DNA from: a virus
Taxonomy: Duplodnaviria > Heunggongvirae > Uroviricota > Caudoviricetes
IMG/VR virus record: IMGVR_UViG_2713897056_000005
DNA length: 38,380 nt
Reading direction: 5' to 3' (one strand)
In this document: positions 1 through 38,380 of the stretch, piece by piece
How positions within the stretch are numbered: position 1 is the first letter of the stretch
How the letters are laid out: the number at the start of each line of letters is the position of its first letter
The notes under the pieces: model-generated
The model's database searches: none
What the model was told of the DNA's origin: nothing
Seen by the model: the letters and a program-made list of their open reading frames with translations, nothing else
Translations under genes and position numbers: made by a program

Positions 1-258
1 ATGCAAACCGTTATTTTTGGTCGTTCGGGTTGCCCTTACTGTGTGCGTGCAAAAGATCTGGCTGAGAAATTGAGCAATGAACGCGATGATTTTCAGTATC
101 AGTATGTAGATATTCGTGCGGAAGGGATCACTAAAGAAGATCTACAACAAAAGGCAGGTAAACCCGTAGAAACCGTGCCGCAGATTTTTGTCGATCAGCA
201 ACATATCGGCGGCTATACCGATTTTGCTGCATGGGTGAAAGAAAATCTGGACGCCTGA
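1..258 (+). CDS. grxA: Glutaredoxin 1
   Basis: 85 aa ORF with CPYC active-site motif near the N-terminus (GRSGCPYCVRAKDLAEKL); matches E. coli GrxA as I remember it; ATG at position 1. Confidence 0.9.
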   Translation: MQTVIFGRSGCPYCVRAKDLAEKLSNERDDFQYQYVDIRAEGITKEDLQQKAGKPVETVPQIFVDQQHIGGYTDFAAWVKENLDA

Positions 259-268
259 TCGTCTGACA

Positions 269-300
269 AGCCCTCGCGTTGAGGGCTTTACTGATTTTTT
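269..300. terminator. Hairpin plus T-run between convergent grxA and ybjM (likely bidirectional intrinsic terminator)
   Basis: agccctc-gcgtt-gagggct stem-loop at 269..287 followed by a T-rich tract ending in six Ts. Confidence 0.5.
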
Positions 301-665
301 CTGTGCTGTGGTTTAAACAAACTACTGATAAATAAGAAACACAGTGCCCCCAGCGCACACCAGAACACCGCGCTTAGTAACCATGCCAGCTCTTGCCAGA
401 ATGAGCGCGTCGGTGAAAAAAACAGCCGCATAATGAGCATCGAACAGGGTGCCGCCAGCATTGCGCCAAACAGAGGTTTCAGGACTTCTCTACGCTGTGA
501 AAAGAAGCTGGCGACTGCTCCAGGAAGAATGAAAAATAGCAAGCCGATTTCAGGATGCCCGGCAGCCCGAAAAGCGCCTTTCATGTGCGTCGCCAGAAAA
601 AGGCACACCACAATGAAGAGGACAAAACAGCAGATTGCCCCCGCCCAACGTTGTTTATGTTTCAC
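288..665 (-). CDS. ybjM: Inner membrane protein YbjM
   Basis: 125 aa hydrophobic multi-helix ORF in the conserved position between grxA and ybjL. Confidence 0.7.
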   Translation of the reverse strand: MKHKQRWAGAICCFVLFIVVCLFLATHMKGAFRAAGHPEIGLLFFILPGAVASFFSQRREVLKPLFGAMLAAPCSMLIMRLFFSPTRSFWQELAWLLSAVFWCALGALCFLFISSLFKPQHRKNQ

Positions 666-934
666 TCGTTCCTCCTGACACTGCGTCTATCGAACACATT
701 TTTCGCCAGTGTGGCGTTCAGTAAGATAAAGCCGCTTCGCATTCCATGCTAATATAGGCCAACGCAATTCATATAGCCGTTGATACCTAATGTGATTACA
801 CTAGTAAAATATATTGTTACTTTACTATCGTTTAGGTGCGCTGAATGAATCTGCGCCCTGAATTCTGGTAAAAAACATTATCGTAAATTACCATTTCTTT
901 CAACAGCTTACTAGTAAACAAGAAGTTAGCCTCC

Positions 935-2620
935 GTGAATATAAACGTCGCCGAATTGTTAAATGGGAATTACATTCTGTTATTATTTGTGGTCCTCGCG
1001 CTTGGGCTATGTCTCGGAAAGTTACGACTTGGTTCGATCCAACTGGGTAATTCCATTGGCGTTTTAGTCGTATCGCTGTTATTAGGCCAACAACATTTCA
1101 GCATTAACACCGATGCGCTTAATCTTGGCTTTATGCTGTTTATTTTCTGCGTCGGGGTCGAAGCCGGACCGAACTTTTTTTCCATTTTTTTTCGCGATGG
1201 GAAAAATTACCTAATGTTAGCACTGGTGATGGTTGGCAGTGCGCTGGTGATCGCCTTAGGGTTAGGTAAGCTGTTTGGCTGGGATATTGGCCTGACGGCC
1301 GGTATGTTAGCAGGCTCTATGACGTCGACACCGGTTCTGGTCGGTGCTGGCGATACACTGCGTCATTCCGGCATGGAAAGCAGGCAGCTCTCACTGGCAC
1401 TGGATAATCTGAGCCTCGGGTATGCCTTAACCTATTTAATCGGTCTGGTGAGTTTGATTGTTGGTGCGCGTTACTTGCCGAAATTGCAGCATCAGGACTT
1501 ACAGACCAGCGCCCAGCAAATCGCCCGCGAACGTGGCCTGGACACTGATGCCAACCGTAAGGTTTATTTACCGGTGATCCGCGCCTATCGCGTCGGCCCG
1601 GAGCTGGTGGCCTGGACCGACGGCAAAAATCTGCGTGAACTGGGTATTTATCGACAAACCGGCTGCTACATTGAACGTATTCGACGTAACGGGATTCTGG
1701 CAAATCCAGACGGTGATGCCGTGCTACAAATGGGCGATGAAATAGCGTTGGTAGGCTATCCCGACGCCCATGCCCGACTCGATCCCAGCTTCCGTAACGG
1801 TAAAGAAGTTTTCGATCGTGACCTTCTCGACATGCGTATCGTCACTGAAGAAGTGGTCGTTAAAAACCATAACGCTGTAGGTAAACGTCTCGCACAACTG
1901 AAGTTGACCGATCACGGTTGCTTCCTTAACCGCGTCATTCGTAGCCAGATTGAGATGCCGATAGATGACAACGTCGTGCTTAACAAAGGTGACGTTTTAC
2001 AAGTCAGCGGTGATGCCCGTCGCGTAAAAACCATCGCCGATCGCATCGGCTTTATCTCGATTCACAGCCAGGTCACTGACCTGCTGGCATTTTGCGCCTT
2101 CTTTGTTATTGGGCTGATGATCGGGATGATCACCTTCCAGTTCAGCACATTCAGTTTCGGCATGGGGAACGCTGCCGGGTTGTTATTCGCCGGAATTATG
2201 CTGGGCTTTATGCGTGCTAACCACCCGACCTTCGGTTACATTCCGCAAGGTGCATTAAGCATGGTGAAAGAGTTCGGCTTGATGGTGTTTATGGCAGGCG
2301 TTGGTCTGAGCGCCGGTAGCGGTATTAATAACGGCCTGGGCGCGATTGGCGGTCAGATGTTGATTGCCGGATTAATTGTCAGTCTTGTGCCCGTGGTTAT
2401 CTGTTTCTTGTTCGGTGCTTATGTATTGCGAATGAACCGCGCACTGTTGTTCGGCGCAATGATGGGCGCACGCACCTGCGCGCCGGCAATGGAGATCATC
2501 AGTGATACAGCTCGCAGTAACATCCCTGCGCTGGGCTACGCGGGCACCTACGCAATCGCCAACGTCCTGCTGACGCTGGCAGGGACAATCATCGTCATGG
2601 TATGGCCAGGATTAGGATAA
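935..2620 (+). CDS. ybjL: Putative transporter YbjL (AAE-family, duplicated membrane domains with central soluble region)
   Basis: 561 aa ORF; hydrophobic N- and C-terminal halves flanking a soluble domain; length and N-terminus ([18 protein letters not shown]) match E. coli YbjL from memory. Apparent GTG start at 935. Confidence 0.85.
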
Positions 2621-2732
2621 AACTGAAGTTGCCCTGAAAATGAAATTTTTTTGCACAACCGCAGAACTTTTCCGCAGGGCATCAGTCTTAATTAGTGCCA
2701 CTGCTTTTCTTTGATGTCCCCATTTTGTGGAG

Positions 2733-2775
2733 CCCATCAACCCCGCCATTTCGGTTCAAGGTTGATGGGTTTTTG
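2733..2775. terminator. Structured hairpin followed by T-run downstream of ybjL
   Basis: cccatcaacc (2733..2742) pairs with ggttgatggg (2760..2769), followed by ttttt; the 17 nt loop is unusually large. Confidence 0.4.
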
Positions 2776-2865
2776 TTGCCTGTTAGATTACTCTCGATAA
2801 AATAATCACTTACTAGCCATATCAGCCTGCAATGGCGACAAAGTGGCGACAGAGAGAGAAAGAGC

Positions 2866-3387
2866 GTGTCCTTATCATTTAGTGACTCAGTAGCAATCGT
2901 CGGAATCATTGTAGGAATTTTGTGTATTGTTGTGGGATTGCCCGCACTTCTAACATTTATCCCACAACGGAAAGAGGCAAAAAGATTACGCAGGGAAAGA
3001 TATGCACAAATTCTAAAAGGTAAAAGTTGGAATAACCTTGGAGTTAACCATGGATTTCCTGAGCCATCACTGGACATACGAATTAACACCGTAGATAACG
3101 CAGGTACACTTCAAGGTGAGATTATCAACTGCCAAAGTAATGTTATGGATTTAGATAAAATAACATTCCATATCAATGGTAAGCTAACCGATAAAGGAAC
3201 TGCATCAATAACACTATGCACTGCTATCGGATGGCGCCAAGTACCGGTGGGAGTTGCGAAATTACGTTATCGCGAAAAAGATGACACACTAGATTTCATC
3301 TATCTGCATGATCATAAATTCAATCCAACCTTATCATGGGAACTAAGCCTCCCTCGGTTTACTACCTACGGACTAGTTGGCTGCTAA
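2866..3387 (+). CDS. Hypothetical membrane-anchored protein (single N-terminal TM helix)
   Basis: 173 aa ORF with N-terminal hydrophobic helix (VAIVGIIVGILCIVVGLPALLTFIP) then a soluble domain; AT-rich; GTG start after a purine-rich tract; lies between host ybjL and prophage ogr. No family recognised. Confidence 0.45.
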   Translation: MSLSFSDSVAIVGIIVGILCIVVGLPALLTFIPQRKEAKRLRRERYAQILKGKSWNNLGVNHGFPEPSLDIRINTVDNAGTLQGEIINCQSNVMDLDKITFHINGKLTDKGTASITLCTAIGWRQVPVGVAKLRYREKDDTLDFIYLHDHKFNPTLSWELSLPRFTTYGLVGC

Positions 3388-3508
3388 CTCTTTGTATATG
3401 GTTCATGCCAGTCTGAACCCAAAAGGTAAATGGCTGCATATCCCTTTCTCTGAATTAAACCAGTAAAAACCCTCCAGCGGTGGGTTAATATTAGTAAGCT
3501 AATTGTTC

Positions 3509-25602: not shown

Positions 25603-26268
25603 TTAAAGATCCGGATCTACAGGCTCATGATATAGATTTACAGGGTAATGAATAACTTCATAATTCAGTTGAGTAACTGTGTGAACATGCTGGCTATAAA
25701 AAACCAATGGATTTTTTTGACAAGGAGTAATCGTTATAGATTTACAGGCATGAATTCTTGGTGCGAATTTATCTAAATGCGCCTTCCAGTTGCTCATCAT
25801 TTCATTACATTTTCTATTACGAGTATAGATAATCAATCCACCACTTGCGCTGTCTACGGTCCCTGTACTATATCGTTCAGTGAGTTGAGCATACCCTTTA
25901 AATAAATAACTATATGAAGATGTATGTTTTTTGGCTTCGCCATGCCAAATATAATCCTTTAGTTTTATTGTAATATCACAATGTCCGCGCTGATTATTTT
26001 CATGAAATGCTTCAATGCCCATATCTTTATTTTTGATATTGGCCAATAAAATTAAAGTAAGCTGATCTTCTGTTAAATCGAAGTTTAACTTATTTGAATT
26101 CTCTTCTATTTCCTTTACAGCAGAATCAAGTTCAATCCTGACAAATTGTTTGAAATTATCGTACGATTGAAGTGCAAATCTAACACGAGTAATAGAAGCA
26201 TTAATACGCTGAAGAAAAATATCATTATCAATATCAGCCAAACTCATTGCTGCAGACATTTTTAACAT
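25603..26268 (-). CDS. Hypothetical protein, gene 3 of AT-rich cargo operon; possible PD-(D/E)xK-like nuclease motif
   Basis: 221 aa; start ATG overlaps the stop of the upstream gene (TGATG); segment GHCDITIKLKDYIWHGEAKK fits a D...ExK pattern (weak). Confidence 0.5.
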   Translation of the reverse strand: MLKMSAAMSLADIDNDIFLQRINASITRVRFALQSYDNFKQFVRIELDSAVKEIEENSNKLNFDLTEDQLTLILLANIKNKDMGIEAFHENNQRGHCDITIKLKDYIWHGEAKKHTSSYSYLFKGYAQLTERYSTGTVDSASGGLIIYTRNRKCNEMMSNWKAHLDKFAPRIHACKSITITPCQKNPLVFYSQHVHTVTQLNYEVIHYPVNLYHEPVDPDL

Positions 26269-26702
26269 CAGATAATATCCTTTGATTTAGATTCATCTAA
26301 TGTAAAAAAAGGAAATACGAATGACTTATAGTCATACATAAGCTCCCCTGTAAATGGGTTTACTAAAGATTGACTGATTTCCGCCTCAATAACTTCCTCT
26401 ATTTCAAGTTCTACAGGGTCATGAAAATCATCAATGAACCAATAATTGAGTTTTAAAAAATCAACCTTTGGGCTACAAAGAATTTGTATGGCCGGATAGA
26501 TAACCTGCTCATACGTTTCTGGCTGTAAAACCTTATTATAACCACCAGCTATATTAAATAAATCCTTATAACTTAAAGCTATATTTGATGATTTTTTAGC
26601 CCTTGCCTCGATTTCATCGTACAAATAGCAAGCTAACGCCCCAATTTCAGGGCGTTCTGCACACATTTCTTTGATGATCTTGGGCATATCACCATCCTTC
26701 AT
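26268..26702 (-). CDS. Hypothetical acidic protein, gene 2 of cargo operon
   Basis: About 144 aa from the ATG at 26702 with GGAG Shine-Dalgarno; Asp/Glu-rich. Confidence 0.5.
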   Translation of the reverse strand: MKDGDMPKIIKEMCAERPEIGALACYLYDEIEARAKKSSNIALSYKDLFNIAGGYNKVLQPETYEQVIYPAIQILCSPKVDFLKLNYWFIDDFHDPVELEIEEVIEAEISQSLVNPFTGELMYDYKSFVFPFFTLDESKSKDII

Positions 26703-26714
26703 TGCTGACTCCAA

Positions 26715-27821
26715 TTATAATATCAGCTTTGTGAGGGTTTCGAAATCATCTTTGGATATACATTTACTTAATATAGCATAGTTAACAGGAGAGCAACTAC
26801 TCCCTCCTAGATGCCTGCGGAGTGTTCCCGGAATGATAAGCTCTACGTTATCCGCTAATTGCAGTTTTGGATTATTTCTATCAACTCTAATTCCAATACG
26901 ATACAAACCAATACTGCCTACTGCTTTGATGCCTTCCTTATTAAACAAATCATCACGTAAGTCTTTAGTGGCCACATTTTTCTTTTCTTTATGCGTAGTC
27001 CCCTCATTCGTCAAAAATGACAAATCAAAGACTTTATAGCTTAATTTTGAATAAGGCAATGAATTTTGTTTGAAAATTGGCTCAATTAACGGATAAAAAT
27101 CTTTTTCCGATGATTTAAATTCATAACCGACATGATTATACAATTCACGAATAATGTTACTCTTTGCAAAAGTAACATTATCACCAATAATATTACCATT
27201 AGTATCTACCAAAACATGAATTTTATTAGTAACAGAGTCTAATATACAGACATCAAAACATTGTCGCTTTTCTTTTCGCTTTGCAATAATTTCATCAAAC
27301 TGCTTGTATTGCGCAAGTGCTGACGGGGGAATTTTTTCTCTTACAACTAATTCTCTGACAGATGAAAAAACAAGTATTGACTGGGTGTTTTGAATAGAAT
27401 AATTAACAAGTTCAGGTTGATTTTTTACAGCATTTTGCAATTGGACATCATCAAGGATCGAATCAACCAATAATGATGGTTGATTCATCAAATTCCATTG
27501 AAAACTAAATCTGTCATTTAGTGTTTTAATTACACTATTATCTACAGTCAAACTAAATATTGCTTTTTCACCATAAACGACCTGACCAAAAATTAGGTCA
27601 TTTACGTTTGCCATAATGCCATCAAACTTTTGCCTATCTTTACTTTTAAGATCAATGAGGCTTTCTAGTATTTTTTCGTTTGTTGCTTCACGCCCCCTAC
27701 CTGTTGGCAGCCCTAAAGACGCAATAATTGGCCTTGCAACGTTCCATGTGAAACGTTCAGTTAAGGTCAAGATCGACTTTAACTCAGACTCAGAAAGCAC
27801 TACTGGGACACTACCTGTCAT
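26715..27821 (-). CDS. Hypothetical protein, gene 1 of cargo operon
   Basis: About 368 aa from the ATG at 27821 with AGGTG Shine-Dalgarno (a GTG at 27830 is an alternative start); no recognisable ATPase or other motif. Confidence 0.5.
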   Translation of the reverse strand: MTGSVPVVLSESELKSILTLTERFTWNVARPIIASLGLPTGRGREATNEKILESLIDLKSKDRQKFDGIMANVNDLIFGQVVYGEKAIFSLTVDNSVIKTLNDRFSFQWNLMNQPSLLVDSILDDVQLQNAVKNQPELVNYSIQNTQSILVFSSVRELVVREKIPPSALAQYKQFDEIIAKRKEKRQCFDVCILDSVTNKIHVLVDTNGNIIGDNVTFAKSNIIRELYNHVGYEFKSSEKDFYPLIEPIFKQNSLPYSKLSYKVFDLSFLTNEGTTHKEKKNVATKDLRDDLFNKEGIKAVGSIGLYRIGIRVDRNNPKLQLADNVELIIPGTLRRHLGGSSCSPVNYAILSKCISKDDFETLTKLIL

Positions 27822-27980
27822 AACTTGCACCTAGTCATCCAAAAAGCAATAAGAATTTGCTCTTGTCTTAATTTATCCTTCGATACCTAACAAATTACCT
27901 CAATGTTGAAAAAATTTGCAAGCCATTTGCTTCTAAAAAGCGACCTTACTCAGAGTGTTACAAAACTAAGCGAGCGCGCG

Positions 27981-28552: not shown

Positions 28553-29525
28553 CTAACTTCCCTTTATTTTTAGTTCGTTAAAAATATCTTCGATTACCAA
28601 TCCATTTTTAATTAAATGCTGCACAATATTTTCATATTCTTTGAAATTGTCAATATGCAAGCCATGATCTTTTTCTTTAGCAATTCTCGTGATCACATGT
28701 ACGCTATCTGTATAATCAATCTTATTTTTAAGAGCATTGAGCAAACTTATACTTGGATTTAAAGTTGAGATTAGTTTACCAAACTCGGTTTGTAACTCTT
28801 TGGATTGATGAGTATTAATATAATCTTCAATAAAAGCATCAAAATCTCCTTGCAACTCAACTTTAAGGTTTGCTATATCCTTCATAATATTTTCTAACTC
28901 AGAAGAGTATGGCCGACCATGTTTAAAATCGAATAAAAAAAGATTTGCTTTCTCAATACATTCGCAAATATAAAAAACTGTATAAAGGGAATATTTTTGC
29001 TTAACTTTTAATTTTCCATAGGCGTAGTGAACCAAAAGATGCTTAGCATTAATAACATTTTTATTTTTTGAAAGTTGATTGTTAGTTGCAGGCGGATAAA
29101 TTACCACATCAACATTATCTAAATTTTGAAAAGTTTTTAAAATAAGAGCCTCAACCTTATTCCAATCGAGGCCCCCATTACCACAGCCTAAAGGTGGTAT
29201 TGATATTGATGTAATTTTTTTTTTCATCTATAATTTTTGCTAAAGATTCAAGGCCTTGCGAGATAAAATCATATGTTGATTTTTTTCTCCAACTATCTTT
29301 AGTGGGAAAGTTTACAATTATTTTTCCCTTTTCCTCTACAATTAAAACCTGTCCAATTTTCATTGTACCAGTGGCGCATGCTCTCTTATAAACTTCGAAA
29401 TTATAGGGAAAAGTTTCTTTAAAAGCCAAAGCAATACCCTTTCCCATGACTCCTTGGCAGTTTACAGCATTCACAAGAGCTTGCGATGTAGAGTTTAGAA
29501 GATTTCCGCTTGCATACTTAATCAT
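28553..29525 (-). pseudogene. darG: DarG-like macrodomain antitoxin, split into two ORFs at an A10 tract
   Basis: 29178..29525 encodes the macrodomain N-terminus (ALVNAVNCQGVMGKGIALAF) and 28553..29227 continues it (SIPPLGCGNGGL) plus a C-terminal domain; frames switch inside the A10 run at 29215..29224. Confidence 0.65.
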
Positions 29526-29529
29526 AGAA

Positions 29530-30111
29530 TTAGAACATATAAGTGTTGATCGTTATCAATATACTTAATCCTTGTTGTTTTATCAACCCTTCAACATATT
29601 TTTTTTCGTTATCATTTTTGACAAAGATGCAATGGAAATTTTTCGGCTCGACCGTTACACTTGATAAACACTCAGCCATACATACAGATTTGCATTCTGC
29701 ATTTTTATAATCCCTTATATTCATTAGCTCCCAGTCAATTTGGGCCATTCCTTGTTCATAATCTAAGAGGTCTATAACAGAACTGGTGGATAATGGATGT
29801 TTAGGGATAACTTTCCAACCATTTTCTTTGGCAAATGCCCGACAAACCGAAATAATACAAAATGATTTTTCCTTATGATCTTTCAGGACTCTTCCATCAA
29901 ATGGATTCTTAGTAAAGAAATGAAAAGGAACCATTGTTTGCAAATTTAATGCTTCGCGACCTGTTATTATTTCACCGTCGGCCACATCAACAAACTCACC
30001 TTTTACTGATGCACGAGATCTTAATCCTGTATCTAAAATACTAGGTAGATTATCCATACATGTTAAATGATAGAGAAGATACTGATCTTCAATTCTTTTC
30101 CTTTCGCTCAT
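29530..30111 (-). CDS. darT: DarT-like DNA ADP-ribosyltransferase toxin (DUF4433 family)
   Basis: N-terminal LLYHLTCMDNLPSILDTGLRSR matches the DarT signature as I recall it; 193 aa; 4 nt upstream of the macrodomain gene; GGATGA Shine-Dalgarno. Confidence 0.65.
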   Translation of the reverse strand: MSERKRIEDQYLLYHLTCMDNLPSILDTGLRSRASVKGEFVDVADGEIITGREALNLQTMVPFHFFTKNPFDGRVLKDHKEKSFCIISVCRAFAKENGWKVIPKHPLSTSSVIDLLDYEQGMAQIDWELMNIRDYKNAECKSVCMAECLSSVTVEPKNFHCIFVKNDNEKKYVEGLIKQQGLSILITINTYMF

Positions 30112-31167: not shown

Positions 31168-33582
31168 TTAATACAGATCCCGCCACTTATCATCTTCCTG
31201 CAAACGCTGGTTCCGATAGAAGATACGCAGGCCTGCTCCTGACGGAATACTGCCACCGCGAAGGAGTAAATCGACCTCTTTCTCGCTTCCATCAAATCCT
31301 CTGGACTTCAGTTCATAGACGAGCTGCTGTCGCTGATGATCTGTAATTCGCTGTTTGTAGTCTCTACGCCGTTTCGGTTTCACCAGGCGTAACCTTGCAG
31401 CCAGTTCCCGGCGCTCTTTTTTGTTCATACTGTGCAGGTAATCGTGCAATTCCTTGTCATCCATGCAGGTGATATCCGTTCTGGTATCCCCATCAGCTGA
31501 TTTGTCTTTCCCTTGTTGGTACAAATTTTCAGCAAGGGGACAGTTATTGCCACGAGTCCAAGGGGCGCAAGCGCCCTGGTCGGCTGCCGCCTCCTGAACG
31601 TCAACGGCTTTACGAACCATTTTCCACTTCACTGCATGAGTGCAGATCTTGCCCTCTGCAATGGGTGACCAGATGCCATAAATACGAATGCCGTGATCGC
31701 CATAGGCGGTCGGCTCTTCGTTGATTTCATAAGCGGTTCTGATGAGGTGATATTTACGGGGAACCAGTACGCCGCCCTGCTTCATGATGTAGGTGGCAAA
31801 ACAACCAGCATCAGCAGCAGCCAGGATGGCATCAAGGCGCGGGTTATCCAGTACCGGCGCACCTGCTTTTTTGTCCCCCTTTTGCCTTACCGCCTGACCA
31901 GCCAGCAATCGCAGTTCACGGTAAGCCTGACGCCCCGGAATGCCAAAGAAGCGGAATTGCTGAACACGATGCAAAGACGCCCAGGCATTCACGTATTCAG
32001 CGTTATCACGCAGAGATTTACCCGTTTCCTTGCTGATCTCGCCAGCCAGACCACGCCCGTCAATGTTCTTACTGATGTATTTCGCTATGTAGCTTGTCGG
32101 CGTTCCTTTGCGCGGGTTAATCAGCTCAGACTTAAAGCGCGGCCCCGTGTTATTGCCCAGCTCCTCGCGGTCTTCACGGATAGCAAACTTACGCAACAAT
32201 GCTGTAATGGCGCGGCGGTCTTTTTTGCGCATGAAACACAACAGGTGCCAGTGAACTGTGCCGTCGTGATGCGGCTCAGCCACCCGCACGCCATACCAGC
32301 GCAACCCGGCTTTGTGCATCGCCTTACGAAATGCAGCAAACATACCGACCAGATAATCGCTGCTTTGTCTTACCGTCGCATTTGTCCAGGTCGGGTTGGG
32401 CCTGCCGTTATTTAGCGTGGAATGGAAACGTGACGGACAGGTGATGGTGTAGAAAACGGCGCAGTCACCGCGCATTTCCGCGATAAGCTCCAGACCTTTA
32501 ACACAGGCCATCATCTCATTGCGGCGATGCGCAGGGTTGCTGCTGCTGGCGTTTACCACATCCTCCATGTCTAGCGTGTCGCCGTCTTCGTTCACCAGTT
32601 CATGAGAACGGAAAAACTCCAGCGACTTACGGCGCTGCTCACGTTTATGCAACACGGCTTCATAGCTGACATAGGGAGATGCTTTTTTGCTGACAAGGCA
32701 GACAGCACGCAACTGCTCTTCCCGCCATTCGCAACGCATCTTCCATAATTTCCGATACCACCAGTCGGCGCACAACATACGCGCCAGCGAACCCGGAATG
32801 AGTTCATAGGGCACGGGTTTACGGCGGTTTCTTTTCCGACGGAGTTGCTCAAACGCAGGCGGGATGACATCCAGACGCAGGGTTTCCGCTGCCACCCTTT
32901 CCCATGTATTGCGGATTTCTTCTGGCTTAACGTCATCGGTGGCATACAAATCGCCACAAGCGGCATCAAGGCACATACTCATATGCGCAGCTACCAGGGT
33001 GGACAGGCGTTTCACCTGATCCTGACTCATTTCAGGCAGGATCAGCAGGCCGTCCAGCCCTTCATGGCTTGCCATAAAGCGAAAAGATGCAGATAGCTGA
33101 CTGTCGCGTACATGCTCCAGTCGTTCCAGACATGGCTTAATCGTCTCACGTAAATAGCGGGAATAAGCCTTTGGCCTGCCCAGGCTGCTGAAGTATTCAA
33201 TACGTTGCATCAGCGGCTTGCTGATATGGGAAGGCTGGGCGTTGACGTCCGCCAGAATGACCATATCCGGATTAAAACGCTGCTGCTCATGCGCCAGCTT
33301 TGCCCGACTAATGAGCTTATCCTGTTCCATTTCGCGCTGGACAGGATCACGGGATTCATTAAAGAAATAACGCTCCCAGACCTGATCACTCAGCGCCTCA
33401 CGGCGCAGCTGTTCCTGCTCGTTATCGGCAGCGTACAGAGTGATCAGGTTTGAAAGCGTAGAAACCGGCGCAACTTCCACCGGGTCCAGATAAGGGTTAA
33501 TGGCCTTTTTCGAGCTGTTCCATGAGAACGATGCGGCAGCTTCGTTAAAGCCGCAGCAGTTGTTCATATCGGCATGACTCAT
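31168..33582 (-). CDS. A: Replication initiation endonuclease A (rolling-circle initiator)
   Basis: 804 aa; last gene of early operon; P2/186 gene A size class. Confidence 0.8.
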
Positions 33583-34436
33583 GCACGTACTCCGTACACG
33601 GCAGAACTATCCACGCCACGCGAATAATCAAATCCCACCCAGCAGCGCGGCCCGGAAACAGCAATGATTTCTGTTGCTGATTTACCCTCGCCAGCTGCCA
33701 CACCGATGCTGCGTTTTGCCTTGATGTAGTGGTGAGTAAAATTGCGATACAGCGAACGGATCAGGGATGTGTCACTGTTAGAAACAATGACCGGATGTCC
33801 TTCTGATAACCGATGTTCAAGAACAGATGCCAGGTGATACTGGTCATCTTCAGTGAAGCCGTCAGTGTGATAGCCGGAAAACGTACCGTCATACGGCGGA
33901 TCGCAATACACCACATCCCCCGCCTTCAACATCGCCAGCGTTTCATCAAAGCTGGCGCAGATAAACGTTGCTCGCTGGGCCTTTTCTGCAAATGCGCGAA
34001 TTTCTTTTTCAGGGAAATATGGATTTTTATAATTACCGTAGGGAATGTTGAAATGCCCGCTCTTGTTATAGCGACATAAACCACGGTAACCGTGACGATT
34101 GAGATACAGGAAATATACCGCTTTCATGAAATCAGTAATTTCAGTTGAGTAATTAAACTCCTGCCTTATATTGTAATAAGCCACCTCCCTGTTTGCGATC
34201 TCAAATAAAACTCTGGCGCGAGATATAAACGATTCACAATCAGCGGCAACCTTTTTATAGAGGTTGATTAAATCAGGATTAATATCCGCAACCAGATAGC
34301 TGGGATAATCCGTCTCCATCATCACAGCACAGGAACCCGCGAAAGGTTCAACCAGTCGCGGGCCAGCAGGAAGATGTTTTTTTAGTTCGGACATTATGGC
34401 AGTTTTATTTCCCGCCCATTTCAGGATGGTGCTCAT
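33579..34436 (-). CDS. dam: DNA adenine methyltransferase (Dam family)
   Basis: N-terminus [11 protein letters not shown] and catalytic DPPY motif ([10 protein letters not shown]); start set at internal Met. Confidence 0.85.
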
Positions 34437-34660
34437 ACAGCACCTCCGTTGTAATGTTTGCCTTTCAGCTCTGCGATTTCCTGACAGGTAATGCAAAGCT
34501 GCACACCCGGAATGGCACGGCGGCGTGCTGGCGGAATTGGCGCTTCACACTCAATGCAAAGCACGCGGGACACGCCCGGCGTTTTGGCACGGGCAGCACG
34601 GATATGGCGTTGGCGTTCTTCTTCAACGCGCTGCTGTACGAGATCCATTGCATCAGCCAT
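34433..34660 (-). CDS. TraR/DksA-family C4 zinc-finger protein
   Basis: 75 aa; CxxC-N17-CxxC (CIECEAPIPPARRRAIPGVQLCITCQ). Confidence 0.7.
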   Translation of the reverse strand: MADAMDLVQQRVEEERQRHIRAARAKTPGVSRVLCIECEAPIPPARRRAIPGVQLCITCQEIAELKGKHYNGGAV

Positions 34661-35473: not shown

Positions 35474-35989
35474 TCACAGCAAACCAAATGAAGCACCGAG
35501 GCCAGTCACGGTATCAACTGCACTCGCCATCGCAGGATTAGCCTGTAAACGGGCCTGCAATGAAACAGCCGCCAGCGCCATCAGTCGTGTTACAGAGTTA
35601 ATGCTGCTGATAGCATCACGACGACCGGCACAGGTTTTTACATCGCCAGACACCGCACCTGCAGCAACACGCCCGATCTCTGCGGTTGCACTCATGACGT
35701 AATGTGGCAGTTTCTCTTTTGCCACCTCATTAATCGGTACACATGGCAGACAATGAATCTGTGCCAGAAAACCATCTACCAGCGTTGAATCTTCAGTCAG
35801 ATCGGTAAGCAGCCAGATTTCTGGTGCGGTTAATAAATGAGGCTGAGCTGGGTTCAGCTTGTTCCGCAGAATCTGCACATTCATGCCTGCACGTTCTGCC
35901 AGTTGCACCAGATTGTGGCGCAGTGCAAATGCACGACAGGCTTCATCAAAATGTGGATGTTTGGAAACTTGGTAATCAAACATGGTCAA
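35474..35989 (-). CDS. cII: CII-like lysogeny establishment activator (phage 186 CII family)
   Basis: [20 protein letters not shown]...LNPAQPH...[25 protein letters not shown] closely resembles 186 CII from memory. Confidence 0.7.
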
Positions 35990-36015
35990 TGCCTCTGATG
36001 TATTTCAGAATCGAA

Positions 36016-36237
36016 CTAATTAAGGTTTAGATTGCATTCTGAAAGCGCATCAACGGTCATTGCTGCTATGTTGATCATCACTTTTTCGCGTTTTTTATCT
36101 TTGCGCAGACGGTGACGGATAAGGCGTCCATCAGCCAACATGTCATTGATGGTATCGATGGATAGCCCTGTCAGCTCGCTATAGCGTTCAATAGTCACAT
36201 GAGGCGTGGTAAGAGTGATTGAAATGTTAGGTCTCAT
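36016..36237 (-). CDS. apl: Apl/Cox-like small DNA-binding excisionase and switch repressor
   Basis: 73 aa, first gene of the lytic operon, divergent from cI; GAGGA Shine-Dalgarno. Confidence 0.5.
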
Positions 36238-36356
36238 GATGCAACATTCCTCGTTTAATGATGATTAATCAGGACGAATACGGATCGTTTGTATTTTGTG
36301 AACACCATAAACATACGATCGCACGGTGAAATCGTCAAGATAAAAGTTCACTTGGA
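36238..36356. promoter_or_regulatory. Lysis-lysogeny switch region (lytic and lysogenic promoters and operators)
   Basis: 119 bp between divergent apl and cI; individual promoter hexamers not confidently assignable by eye. Confidence 0.5.
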
Positions 36357-36932
36357 GTGACCATGAATTTGGAGAAAGGCGGACGAGGCGCCATAGAGCG
36401 CATGGTAGAAGCTTATGGATTCAAGACTCGACAGGCGTTGTGCGATCATTTAGGAATCTCTAAAAGTACACTCGCCACACGCTACATGCGTGACTCATTC
36501 CCAGCAGAATGGGTAATCCAGTGCGCCCTTGAAACAGGCACCTCGCTTAATTGGCTCACAACCGGGCATGGTTCAAAGCAAACTTCAGGTAATACAAATA
36601 CTATGGAAGTTGCTAAATATGTATTATCTGATGGGGCCTTGTGTGAAGACGGTTTTTATATTTTCGATAGAGAATTTCTACCGTCGGCATTCAAGAATCT
36701 TTTTGTAATCACAGATAATAATTCTGAATTTATTTGTGATAAGGAATTTGATGATATACGTGATGGTAAATGGGTAATAAGTATTGATGGCGAAATAACG
36801 ATCCGTGACATTACTCGTTTACCCGGTGGAAGAATCTTCGTCGAGGGTGGAAACAGAGCCTTTGAATGTAAGATAGAAGACATTGAAATAATTGGTAAAA
36901 TTATAAGTTTAACAGTCAAGTATGTTAAATAG
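36357..36932 (+). CDS. cI: Immunity repressor (186 CI-like)
   Basis: 191 aa; N-terminal HTH region (EAYGFKTRQALCDHLGISKSTLATRY) and C-terminal LPGGRIFVEGG resemble 186 CI from memory. Confidence 0.7.
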   Translation: MTMNLEKGGRGAIERMVEAYGFKTRQALCDHLGISKSTLATRYMRDSFPAEWVIQCALETGTSLNWLTTGHGSKQTSGNTNTMEVAKYVLSDGALCEDGFYIFDREFLPSAFKNLFVITDNNSEFICDKEFDDIRDGKWVISIDGEITIRDITRLPGGRIFVEGGNRAFECKIEDIEIIGKIISLTVKYVK

Positions 36933-36947
36933 TACCGGGAGGAAATT

Positions 36948-37139
36948 ATGCTTGGTAAGGTATTTTTTGTGGTTTTGTCATGTTCTTTGTTATTAAACCC
37001 ACTAGCTACCTATGCTAGAAATTATCCCTGCTCAGGGAAAAAGGGAGGTGTTTCTCACTGTACCTCTGATGGCAAATTCGTTTGCAATGATGGAACTATT
37101 AGTAAATCCAAAAAAATCTGTACTAAAAACTCACGATAA
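36948..37139 (+). CDS. Small secreted cysteine-rich protein (candidate lysogenic-conversion moron)
   Basis: 63 aa; signal-peptide-like N-terminus ([23 protein letters not shown]) and four Cys in the mature part; between cI and int on the lysogenic transcript. Confidence 0.4.
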
Positions 37140-37327
37140 CTTTTGCTTTTATATCTGCGCCTAAAATAAAAATGAGCCACAGGTTAACCGCAAAAGTTAC
37201 ATGATCACATAGCAAAAAGAATAGCCTACTTCATTATGGCTTCAGTGAGATGTATGGTCGCAGGATTTCATACATTGACACTGGTTATACATACAGTAAA
37301 AATGCTCTCTATTGGAGGGCATTTTTT

Positions 37328-38380
37328 ATGGCTGTACGAAAACTCACCACAGGAAAATGGCTTTGCGAATGTTACCCCGCCGGACGTAGTGGGCGTCGTG
37401 TGCGTAAACAATTCGCCACCAAAGGCGAAGCACTGGCTTTTGAGCGTCACACGATGGAAGAAACCGAAGCAAAGCCCTGGCTAGGTGAATCAGTGGATCG
37501 TCGAACACTGAAAGACGTGGTTGAGCTATGGTTCAAACTACATGGTAAATCACTGACTGCTGGGCAGCATGTCTATGACAAATTGCTGCTGATGGTTGAC
37601 GCTCTGGGCAATCCCCTTGCAACTGATCTAACCTCTAAAATGTTTGCCCACTATCGAGATAAACGCCTGACAGGTGAGATCTACTTCAGCGAGAAATGGA
37701 AGAAAGGAGCAAGCCCGGTCACCATTAACCTGGAGCAAAGCTATCTAAGTAGTGTTTTTAGCGAACTATCCCGCCTGGGCGAATGGTCGTATCCGAACCC
37801 ACTGGAGAACATGCGAAAATTCACCATCGCAGAAAAAGAGATGGCATGGCTTACCCATGAGCAGATTGTTGAATTACTGGCTGATTGCAAACGTCAGGAC
37901 CCAATTCTGGCACTGGTAGTTAAGATATGCTTAAGCACAGGCGCACGCTGGCGAGAAGCCGTAAATCTTACTCGTTCACAGGTGACCAAATACCGAATTA
38001 CCTTTGTAAGAACGAAGGGGAAGAAAAACAGAAGCATCCCTATCAGTAAAGAGCTTTACGAAGAGATCATGGCGCTTGATGGGTTCAATTTCTTCACAGA
38101 CTGCTATTTTCAATTTTTATCCGTGATGGAAAAAACGTCTATCGTGCTCCCTCGCGGTCAACTCACACACGTTCTGCGCCATACGTTTGCGGCGCACTTC
38201 ATGATGTCGGGTGGAAACATTCTGGCCTTACAAAAAATTCTCGGACACCACGATATAAAAATGACTATGCGTTACGCACATCTGGCACCGGATCATCTGG
38301 AAACGGCGCTCCGTTTCAATCCTCTGGCAACGCTGCCAAGTGGCGACAAAGTGGCGGCAGCGGTTGGCATTACCCCGTAA
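37328..38380 (+). CDS. int: Tyrosine integrase (P2/186 family)
   Basis: Start at MAVRKLTTGKW; C-terminal catalytic region with R...HxxR...Y (LRHTFAAHF, MRYAHL); stop codon is the last 3 nt of the window. Confidence 0.85.
   Translation: MAVRKLTTGKWLCECYPAGRSGRRVRKQFATKGEALAFERHTMEETEAKPWLGESVDRRTLKDVVELWFKLHGKSLTAGQHVYDKLLLMVDALGNPLATDLTSKMFAHYRDKRLTGEIYFSEKWKKGASPVTINLEQSYLSSVFSELSRLGEWSYPNPLENMRKFTIAEKEMAWLTHEQIVELLADCKRQDPILALVVKICLSTGARWREAVNLTRSQVTKYRITFVRTKGKKNRSIPISKELYEEIMALDGFNFFTDCYFQFLSVMEKTSIVLPRGQLTHVLRHTFAAHFMMSGGNILALQKILGHHDIKMTMRYAHLAPDHLETALRFNPLATLPSGDKVAAAVGITP

Follow-up and report, generated by a model that had tools for sequence, protein, structure and literature searches.

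In this work, we analysed a small open reading frame (ORF) that lies between the repressor gene cI and the integrase gene int in the Caudoviricetes record IMGVR_UViG_2713897056_000005, whose whole stretch of 38,380 nucleotides (nt) is referred to as the window. The small ORF is a genuine coding gene under strong purifying selection and, judged by its sequence, it is a prophage paralogue of E. coli ydcA, a member of a family that is already catalogued. We hold with high confidence that it is a real gene and that its product, as predicted, is exported. As an overall reading, we favour with moderate confidence a functional accessory gene of a 186-like (P2-family) prophage, the product of which would serve as a periplasmic module that binds polyanions or envelope components.

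A coding gene of the YdcA family

An earlier note on this DNA had placed an ORF of 63 amino acids (aa) between cI and int, and this was confirmed: the frame runs on the + strand, as do both neighbours, from the ATG at 36948 to the TAA at 37137-37139, and it is preceded by a GGAGG Shine-Dalgarno (SD) sequence. At the identical locus of E. coli S40 in RefSeq, cI is followed by the hypothetical protein WP_001513672.1 and the integrase, and the RefSeq name of the protein is "hypothetical" or "YdcA family protein", depending on the record. Among 5426 complete E. coli genomes, an identical or near-identical coding sequence was present in 648. About one in eight of these genomes thus carries the gene in a prophage, and every E. 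coli K-12 carries the paralogue ydcA. For the analysis of selection, the 29 core codons were set against those of prophage copies from Klebsiella, Hafnia, Yersinia and a second E. coli lineage. In this cross-genus comparison the synonymous sites were saturated (pS 0.76-1.0) and the nonsynonymous difference was very low (pN 0.015-0.045), with 4, 1 and 26 variable sites at codon positions 1, 2 and 3, respectively. Between the gene of the window and an E. coli copy of 93% identity there are 13 nucleotide differences, of which 11 fall in third positions; 11 codons are changed synonymously and the only two replacements, A20T and R24K, are conservative. The earlier note had named loss of the coding frame in related prophages as evidence against its proposal, and the opposite was observed. 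Because 648 genomes carry the coding sequence and the synonymous sites are saturated at low pN, the small ORF is not a chance ORF.

The encoded protein matches the NCBIfam model NF007463 (PRK10040.1-2) with 114.6 bits at a cut-off of 93, residues 5-63 covering positions 1-58 of the 58 in the model. It misses NF007462 (68.5 bits, cut-off 118) and falls into the NF007463 equivalog, which is separate from NF007462. Moreover, it matches phrog_6000 at 3e-34, and the identical protein P0001 carries a precomputed match to Pfam PF27300 (YdcA). The local Pfam copy gave no real match to the small ORF (a GULLO2-like hit at E = 0.076 is noise), because PF27300 postdates that copy. With its core PCSGKKGG-x3-C...F-x-C-x-DG-x2-S-x-SKK-x-C, the protein has all the invariant columns of the family motif P-C-S-G-x-K-G-G-x3-C ... 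F-x-C-x-D-G-x2-S-x-S-K-K-x-C. In BLASTP, it shares 30 of 53 residues (57%) with YdcA of E. coli K-12 (b1419, 57 aa) at E = 1e-19. Both proteins belong to the PF27300/PRK10040 group and both have a signal peptide and a basic core with four cysteines. They differ in location, since K-12 ydcA is a chromosomal core gene between cybB/rydC and hokB, whereas the gene of the window is a prophage copy in a repressor operon.

The family is large. An exhaustive profile search yielded 464 clusters at 50% identity, and a word-seeded search yielded 1039 clusters at 90% identity. Most members have 55-140 aa, and some carry two or three YdcA domains in tandem (P0079-P0083). Members also occur on plasmids of Acinetobacter and Rhizobium, on chromosomes, and within the tail gene modules of phages of Moraxella and Acinetobacter. 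One UniRef entry for the identical protein bears the name 'conjugal transfer protein'; this was rejected as uncorroborated, as all 58 of 58 plasmid matches are called 'hypothetical protein' or unannotated and have no link to transfer genes. The DUF3761 motif C-x-DG-x2-S-x-S ... CS-x-HGGV, which no Pfam match connects with the family, presumably resembles a permuted YdcA core. A literature search on the YdcA family found no functional study; K-12 YdcA is described as a predicted periplasmic protein of 57 aa without an assigned function (PMC11340327). The gene of the window offers a tractable handle on the function of an uncharacterised E. coli y-gene family.

The earlier note had also described a signal-peptide-like N-terminus, and this was borne out by a predicted cleavable Sec/signal peptidase I (SPase I) signal. 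By heuristic evaluation only, it consists of K4, a stretch of 9 residues with a mean Kyte-Doolittle value of 2.7, T at -3 and A at -1. In an alignment of 30 homologues, the Ala at -1 is present in all 30 sequences, and the residue at -3 is small (S/A/T/V) in 24. The other six have E, H or Q at -3 and end in ...A-x-A-A, so that a cut one residue earlier would fit the rule. The first 20 or so residues of the aligned sequences are almost fully divergent, with a basic start and a hydrophobic core retained throughout, and the sequence beyond the signal peptide is nearly invariant. A divergent leader with a constant Ala at -1, followed by a near-invariant core, is the signature of a protein exported by Sec and SPase I. 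The predicted mature peptide is very basic, with a net charge of about +7. The count of four cysteines in the earlier note holds for this mature part (C28, C38, C46 and C58), where they are invariant in the 30-sequence alignment and across 97 diverse members; the precursor has five, the extra one being C12 in the signal peptide. The two AlphaFold (AF2) models have mean pLDDT values of 78.8 and 80.1, rising to 89-92 over residues 31-50, and place a small knot containing a beta-hairpin after the signal helix. A Foldseek search against BFVD gave no match better than E = 1.6.

Divergent homologues (58-67% identity, with differences mostly in the signal peptide) were all found in 186-like prophages, always directly 3' of cI. 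A YdcA-like gene immediately follows a 186-type cI in prophages of E. coli, Klebsiella, Hafnia and Yersinia, and also in Haemophilus phage HP2. In phage 186 itself, cI overlaps int and no YdcA-like gene lies between them; its record annotates the lysogenic operon as pL-cI-int-orf69-terminator. Among the enterobacterial phage records of a phage collection of 50,697 records, no homologue of the small ORF was found. The accessory nature that the earlier note ascribed to a moron agrees with the absence of the gene from 186 and with its homologues in unrelated phages, plasmids and chromosomes. This distribution fits an accessory gene that has turned into a stable passenger of the repressor operon, and from the sequence a moron, that is, a lysogenic-conversion gene, is plausible. 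The constancy of this location, first among the passengers of the repressor operon in P2-family prophages from several genera, implies continuous production in the lysogen.

Probable operon layout, candidate int promoter and cargo slot

The start of the small ORF is separated from the cI stop codon (36930-32) by 15 nt, and no + strand terminator is predicted between the two genes (Table 1). Because it lies on the same strand at this short distance, with no predicted terminator and a strong SD, it is rather likely that the small ORF is co-expressed with CI in lysogens. It would be transcribed together with cI, from pL in the lysogen and from the CII-activated pE at establishment, and would be translated from its own SD. 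The cI frame is also open from a GTG further upstream, at 36357. The opposite strand carries an Apl/Cox-like gene (36016-36237) and a 186-type cII gene (35474-35989).

Table 1. Positions of the small ORF and of the features around it in the window.
Feature	Position	Strand	Remarks
CII-box inverted repeat ATGTTTG-N13-CAAACAT, putative equivalent of the 186 pE activator site, toward cI	35957..35983	+	half-sites as in 186
cI repressor gene, 186 type	36363..36932	+	Pfam Phage_CI_repr 2.8e-33, Phage_CI_C 2.7e-27; RefSeq start
Shine-Dalgarno sequence GGAGG of the small ORF	36938..36942	+	5 nt 5' of the ATG; read from the sequence
Small ORF (YdcA-family gene, 63-aa precursor), stop codon included	36948..37139	+	NF007463, phrog_6000, PF27300 on the identical protein; purifying selection
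Predicted Sec/SPase I signal peptide, residues 1-23	36948..37016	+	cleavage after T-Y-A (positions 21-23)
Predicted mature 40-aa peptide	37017..37136	+	4.3 kDa, pI 9.7, four invariant Cys
Cargo slot, empty in the window	37140..37249	+	about 107 nt unique to the lineage
Second CII-box-like inverted repeat ATGTATG-N12-CATACAT	37250..37275	+	abuts the -35; pattern search
Sigma-70-like promoter TTGACA-17-AAAAAT, candidate CII-dependent int promoter	37275..37303	+	consensus scan 10/12; conserved in the alignment
13-bp hairpin and T-run, terminator-like, putatively sequestering the ribosome-binding site	37298..37326	+	3' arm holds the int SD GGAGG (37314-18)
Integrase gene, tyrosine recombinase	37328..38380	+	Pfam Int_N, Phage_integrase; RefSeq start

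The region between the small ORF and int, which starts 188 nt after the stop codon of the small ORF, contains elements of its own. The annotated CII site of the phage 186 pE promoter reads ATGTTTG-N13-CAAACAT, and the pattern ATGTWTG-N12-14-CAWACAT gave two matches in the window compared with 0.00 expected. One of them (35957-35983) is the putative pE equivalent and the other (37250-37275) lies upstream of int. The longest int ORF would start at the ATG at 37250, which falls within this second box; that start was rejected in favour of the RefSeq start at 37328. Relative to the int start, the second box lies at -78 to -86 in the loci of E. coli, Klebsiella, Hafnia and Yersinia, with compensatory changes, and the box, the promoter and the hairpin stand at the same distance from int in all of them (L002 5531-5608, L006 5532-5608, L008 5294-5372, L014 4189-4271). 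The stems of the hairpin differ between loci (GCTCTC/GGAGGGC, GTCCTCA/TGAGGAC and GCCCTCA/TGAGGGC). Folding of the RNA of 37125-37330 gave z = -4.97. RNAalifold missed the terminal hairpin in the alignment of the int-upstream region because of indels, and the sequences were folded singly instead. The only Rfam match in 35900-38380 was a sub-threshold CRISPR-DR9 hit inside int.

The second CII box and the promoter next to it suggest a CII-dependent int promoter resembling lambda pI. At establishment, int would be expressed from this promoter, with transcription starting within the 5' arm of the hairpin, as from lambda pI. On the other hand, read-through transcripts of cI-ydcA, with or without cargo, would be terminated at the hairpin, or the ribosome-binding site of int would be hidden by it. 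With the site hidden by the hairpin and T-run, the lysogen would therefore make CI, YdcA and any cargo product and little Int. The CII-box promoter and the hairpin thus probably insulate the lysogen operon of cI, ydcA and any cargo from int. This modifies the claim of the earlier note that the small ORF lies on a lysogenic transcript. It does lie on the repressor strand close behind cI, but because a promoter and a hairpin precede int, it would be the distal gene of a cI-ydcA(-cargo) operon rather than a gene within a cI-int transcript. Because cI overlaps int in phage 186, these int-upstream elements have no counterpart there.

Homology between the window and the related prophages L002 and L006 ends at 37131, within the last codons of the small ORF, and returns at 37239-37248, about 90 nt before int. 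In close relatives, the interval between the YdcA-like gene and int holds a gene for a 443-aa KAP-family P-loop NTPase (L002 4198-5529, L006 4198-5529, L019 2697-4028), which matches the PADLOC candidate PDC-S20 at 1.3e-171. The Hafnia slot holds a 347-aa multi-pass membrane protein unrelated to the KAP NTPase. A slot with defence candidates, together with the CII-box promoter and the hairpin, suggests that lysogen cargo is uncoupled from integrase expression. In Moraxella, a single-pass membrane protein (212-232 aa) accompanies the YdcA homologue at two loci (L011 4001-4884, L021 3438-4264), and the two partner proteins are 37% identical. One pair lies on the M. bovoculi chromosome and the other in the tail module of the M. 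catarrhalis prophage Mcat15, which suggests a mobile two-gene cassette; the paper on the Moraxella prophage does not discuss the YdcA homologue. A conserved two-gene module across the whole set was rejected, as the KAP NTPase, the Hafnia 347-aa protein, orf1 of HP2 and the Moraxella 212/232-aa proteins are mutually unrelated, save for the Moraxella pair. Just past the stop of the small ORF, in the lineage-specific 107 nt, a 10-bp long-range stem (UAACUUUUGC / GCAAAAGUUA, 37136-37199) encloses a loop of about 44 nt and is followed by no T-run; it may have been left behind by recombination or may stabilise the 3' end of the mRNA.

Possible function of the predicted exported product

We hypothesize that the product is a small periplasmic module with a polyanionic ligand, which may be DNA or a component of the envelope or outer membrane. 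The precursor would be exported by Sec, cut after Ala23 and oxidised by DsbA, which would give a 4.3-kDa mini-protein with two disulfides in the periplasm of the lysogen. The lysogen would thereby gain a benefit at the level of the envelope, for example interference with incoming foreign DNA, or stress tolerance. That the gene confers a measurable phenotype on the lysogen is a tentative expectation, somewhat short of an even chance.

The indication of polyanion binding comes from fusion proteins. The 52 longer representatives of the family, with at least 105 aa, were surveyed, and the YdcA domain was found joined to Endonuclease_NS (three), PBCV basic adaptor (two), SNase, PLD-like Nuc, VasL and DUF4124 (one each). 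Endonuclease_NS, SNase and PLD-like Nuc represent three unrelated nuclease folds (P0168, P0151, P0185, P0109, P0167). In the nuclease and VasL fusions, the signal peptide is followed by the YdcA domain and then by the extra domain. These fusions are no more than a hint; with the strong positive charge, they suggest a DNA- or polyanion-binding module that acts in the periplasm or outside the cell.

A second indication is a resemblance to Dis2 (Lpg0823), a small periplasmic protein with a signal peptide and two Cys-rich lobes in the outer-membrane cap that belongs to the type IV secretion system Dot/Icm of Legionella pneumophila (PDB 7MUC/7MUD chain AN). Its lobes share the motif C-S-K-x-GG-I-x-x-C...G-x-x-V-C-N-x-G-x-x-S. 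Dis2 lies beneath the outer membrane and is not essential (PMC8486379, PMC12716638). It was the top PDB match of the full-length family profile, signal peptide included (E = 1.9e-4), and the top Foldseek match of both AF2 models (E = 0.089 with a probability score of 0.98, and E = 0.46 with 0.60), with 38-39% identity over 37-38 columns; the second, deeper model brought no gain in the score. After removal of the signal peptide, Dis2 remained the top match for profile A2 and came third, behind low-density lipoprotein (LDL) receptor repeats, for the broader profile A3. Taken with the charge and the fusions, this weak resemblance suggests, and fits, a periplasmic polyanion or envelope module.

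Several observations weigh against a periplasmic binding module in an accessory prophage gene. The mature-only profiles match Dis2 at E = 0.12 and 0.042, LDL-receptor class A repeats score alike, and the two-domain relatives match it at E = 0.93 or not at all. Homology to Dis2 is a lead and not a result, because the similarity is no longer significant once the signal peptide is taken off (E = 0.04-0.9). Nuclease fusions are uncommon: 5 of 150 representatives carry one, each of these stands for a metagenomic cluster with 1-3 members, and the best 120 of the 1039 matches include none. Searched against PADLOC-DB 2.0, the small ORF matched no defence family at E <= 0.01. The AT-richness of the small ORF (GC 35.9%, or 29.7% at third codon positions, vs 50% for the window) is a weak argument, because the C-terminal half of cI, with 33.7% GC, is equally AT-rich. 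Furthermore, the roles of the promoter, terminator and CII boxes are inferred solely from the sequence.

Action of the product as a DNA-binding or exclusion factor we regard as unlikely. The most specific form of this idea is that the YdcA mini-protein is a periplasmic DNA-binding module which P2/186-like, Haemophilus, Moraxella and Acinetobacter lysogens would secrete against incoming DNA, in combination with the CII-dependent int promoter and the hairpin insulating the cI-ydcA-cargo operon; as a whole, this has a low probability. If the protein did trap or obstruct DNA, either superinfecting phage genomes or transforming DNA, it would represent a new and very small class of superinfection exclusion or DNA-uptake interference and would account for the orphan gene ydcA of E. 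coli as well.

The product might instead mainly aid the stress physiology of the host in the role of chromosomal YdcA, namely tolerance of acid or organic acids, the prophage providing an extra, constitutively expressed copy. Chromosomal ydcA is reported to be regulated by YdcI and induced by acid, and losing it reportedly renders E. coli W sensitive to 3-hydroxypropionate (PMC7642389), the one phenotype published for any family member. These data point to stress physiology rather than phage exclusion, and the 57% identity to K-12 YdcA agrees with such a role. However, the reported phenotype is one observation without a mechanism, and the benefit of a second copy is doubtful since ydcA is already in the E. 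coli core genome. In addition, Haemophilus, Moraxella and Acinetobacter have phage-borne copies, which lie in diverse surroundings. We therefore consider this explanation fairly unlikely as the main function; if the gene were only a helper in stress tolerance, it would be an ordinary moron.

The gene might belong to the core of the lysogeny module as a regulatory or structural component, for instance in the expression of int or cI, and this would account for the invariant position after cI in four enterobacterial genera and HP2 and for the HP2 ATG that overlaps the cI stop. Yet phage 186 lysogenises without the gene, int is 188 nt away with a promoter-like element of its own, and homologues exist outside any lysogeny module. 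Moreover, selection acts on the amino-acid sequence of a predicted exported peptide, beyond the mere open frame, and we judge such a role improbable. Much the same applies to the proposal that the gene works with downstream cargo, its product serving the KAP NTPase, for instance, as a sensor or partner in the periplasm, and that the copy in the window is an orphan left after cargo loss. In relatives, the KAP NTPase (PDC-S20), a membrane protein or a secreted OB-fold protein is indeed encoded directly downstream, and in Moraxella the pairing with a homologous single-pass membrane protein is seen in phage and chromosome. The downstream genes are, however, mutually unrelated, and the gene is intact and under purifying selection without cargo in the window, in Yersinia and in 592 E. 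coli genomes that have the full-length architecture, so this proposal too has little chance of being correct.

As opposed to the cleaved peptide that we favour, a lipoprotein anchored via Cys12 would require V-L-S-C (residues 9-12) to serve as the lipobox, to which it is a loose fit. Cys12 lies only 12 residues in, within the h-region, and the hydrophobic stretch runs on past it. A Cys in the signal peptide is found in 7 of the 30 homologues and a lipobox-like string in two, as against the invariant Ala at -1 before the mature domain. A conserved lipobox [LVI][ASTVI][GAS]C that closes a signal peptide of roughly 15-25 residues is absent, and the lipoprotein identity, being very unlikely, was rejected. 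Equally slight is the chance of a secreted cationic, defensin-like antimicrobial or toxic peptide. A mature peptide of 40 aa with a charge of about +7 and two predicted disulfides has the right appearance, but neither an outer-membrane export system nor an immunity gene is adjacent and no bacteriocin family was matched. The family also belongs to the E. coli core genome and often occurs in tandem or as an N-terminal module fused to enzymes. Finally, that the stretch from cI to int is non-coding or is open by chance, as the shortness, the AT-richness and the missing match in the local Pfam copy might have suggested, has a negligible probability in view of a curated hidden Markov model matched above its cut-off, the 1039 homologous clusters and the 4/1/26 codon pattern with saturated synonymous sites.

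Other features of the window and comparison with known systems

The left end of the window (1-3400) is host DNA and carries ybjM (288-665, -) and a gene for a ybjL-type Asp-Al_Ex/TrkA_C permease (935-2620, +). The right end coincides exactly with the int stop codon, next to which rcdA (ybjK) is found in identical genomes. With the ybjL-type gene on the left and rcdA on the right, the prophage therefore occupies the interval from ybjL to rcdA. A gene for a DarT-like ssDNA ADP-ribosyltransferase (29530-30111, -; Pfam DarT 9e-22, PADLOC DarT 2.7e-36) stands beside a DarG-like gene (28553-29227, -; PADLOC 4.7e-28), and this pair occupies the principal defence hotspot of P2, which is bounded by the portal gene and replication gene A. 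At 25603-27830 (-) there are three more ORFs, none of which matched a family. The early operon includes a gene for a D12-class N6-adenine DNA methyltransferase (33579-34496, -; Pfam MethyltransfD12 8e-76), which adjoins replication gene A and is shared with the related prophages L002-L005.

In a recent survey, the interval between integrase and primase is listed among the minor defence hotspots of P2 and is reported to hold 8% of P2 defence systems (PMC13586616). In comparison with this hotspot, the YdcA-like gene is a constant flank of the slot and no recognised defence gene. The resemblance to Dis2 also has its limits, since Dis2, unlike the protein of the window, has two lobes and five disulfides and is a part of a secretion machine.

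An arrangement close to that of the window is found in the P2-family Haemophilus phage HP2/S2 (NC_003315, complement ~2495-2668; L001 2944-3117), in which an intact YdcA-family ORF of 57 aa is unannotated in both records. As in the window, it follows a 186-type cI, lies upstream of int and encodes the same core motif. In contrast to the window, its ATG overlaps the cI stop, and orf1, encoding a secreted tRNA_anti-like OB-fold protein, comes between it and int. The lysogeny operon of phage 186, driven by pL, is the paradigm for the cI-ydcA operon of the window.

Classical morons and exclusion genes are accessory genes of temperate phages that are expressed in the lysogen, and many of them act on the envelope. 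Most classical morons have their own promoter and terminator or are sited in other hotspots. The gene of the window has no sequence or fold relationship to lambda bor and lom, P2 old, tin and fun(Z), phi80 cor, T5 llp or P22 sieA and, unlike most classical morons, it rides in the repressor operon itself.

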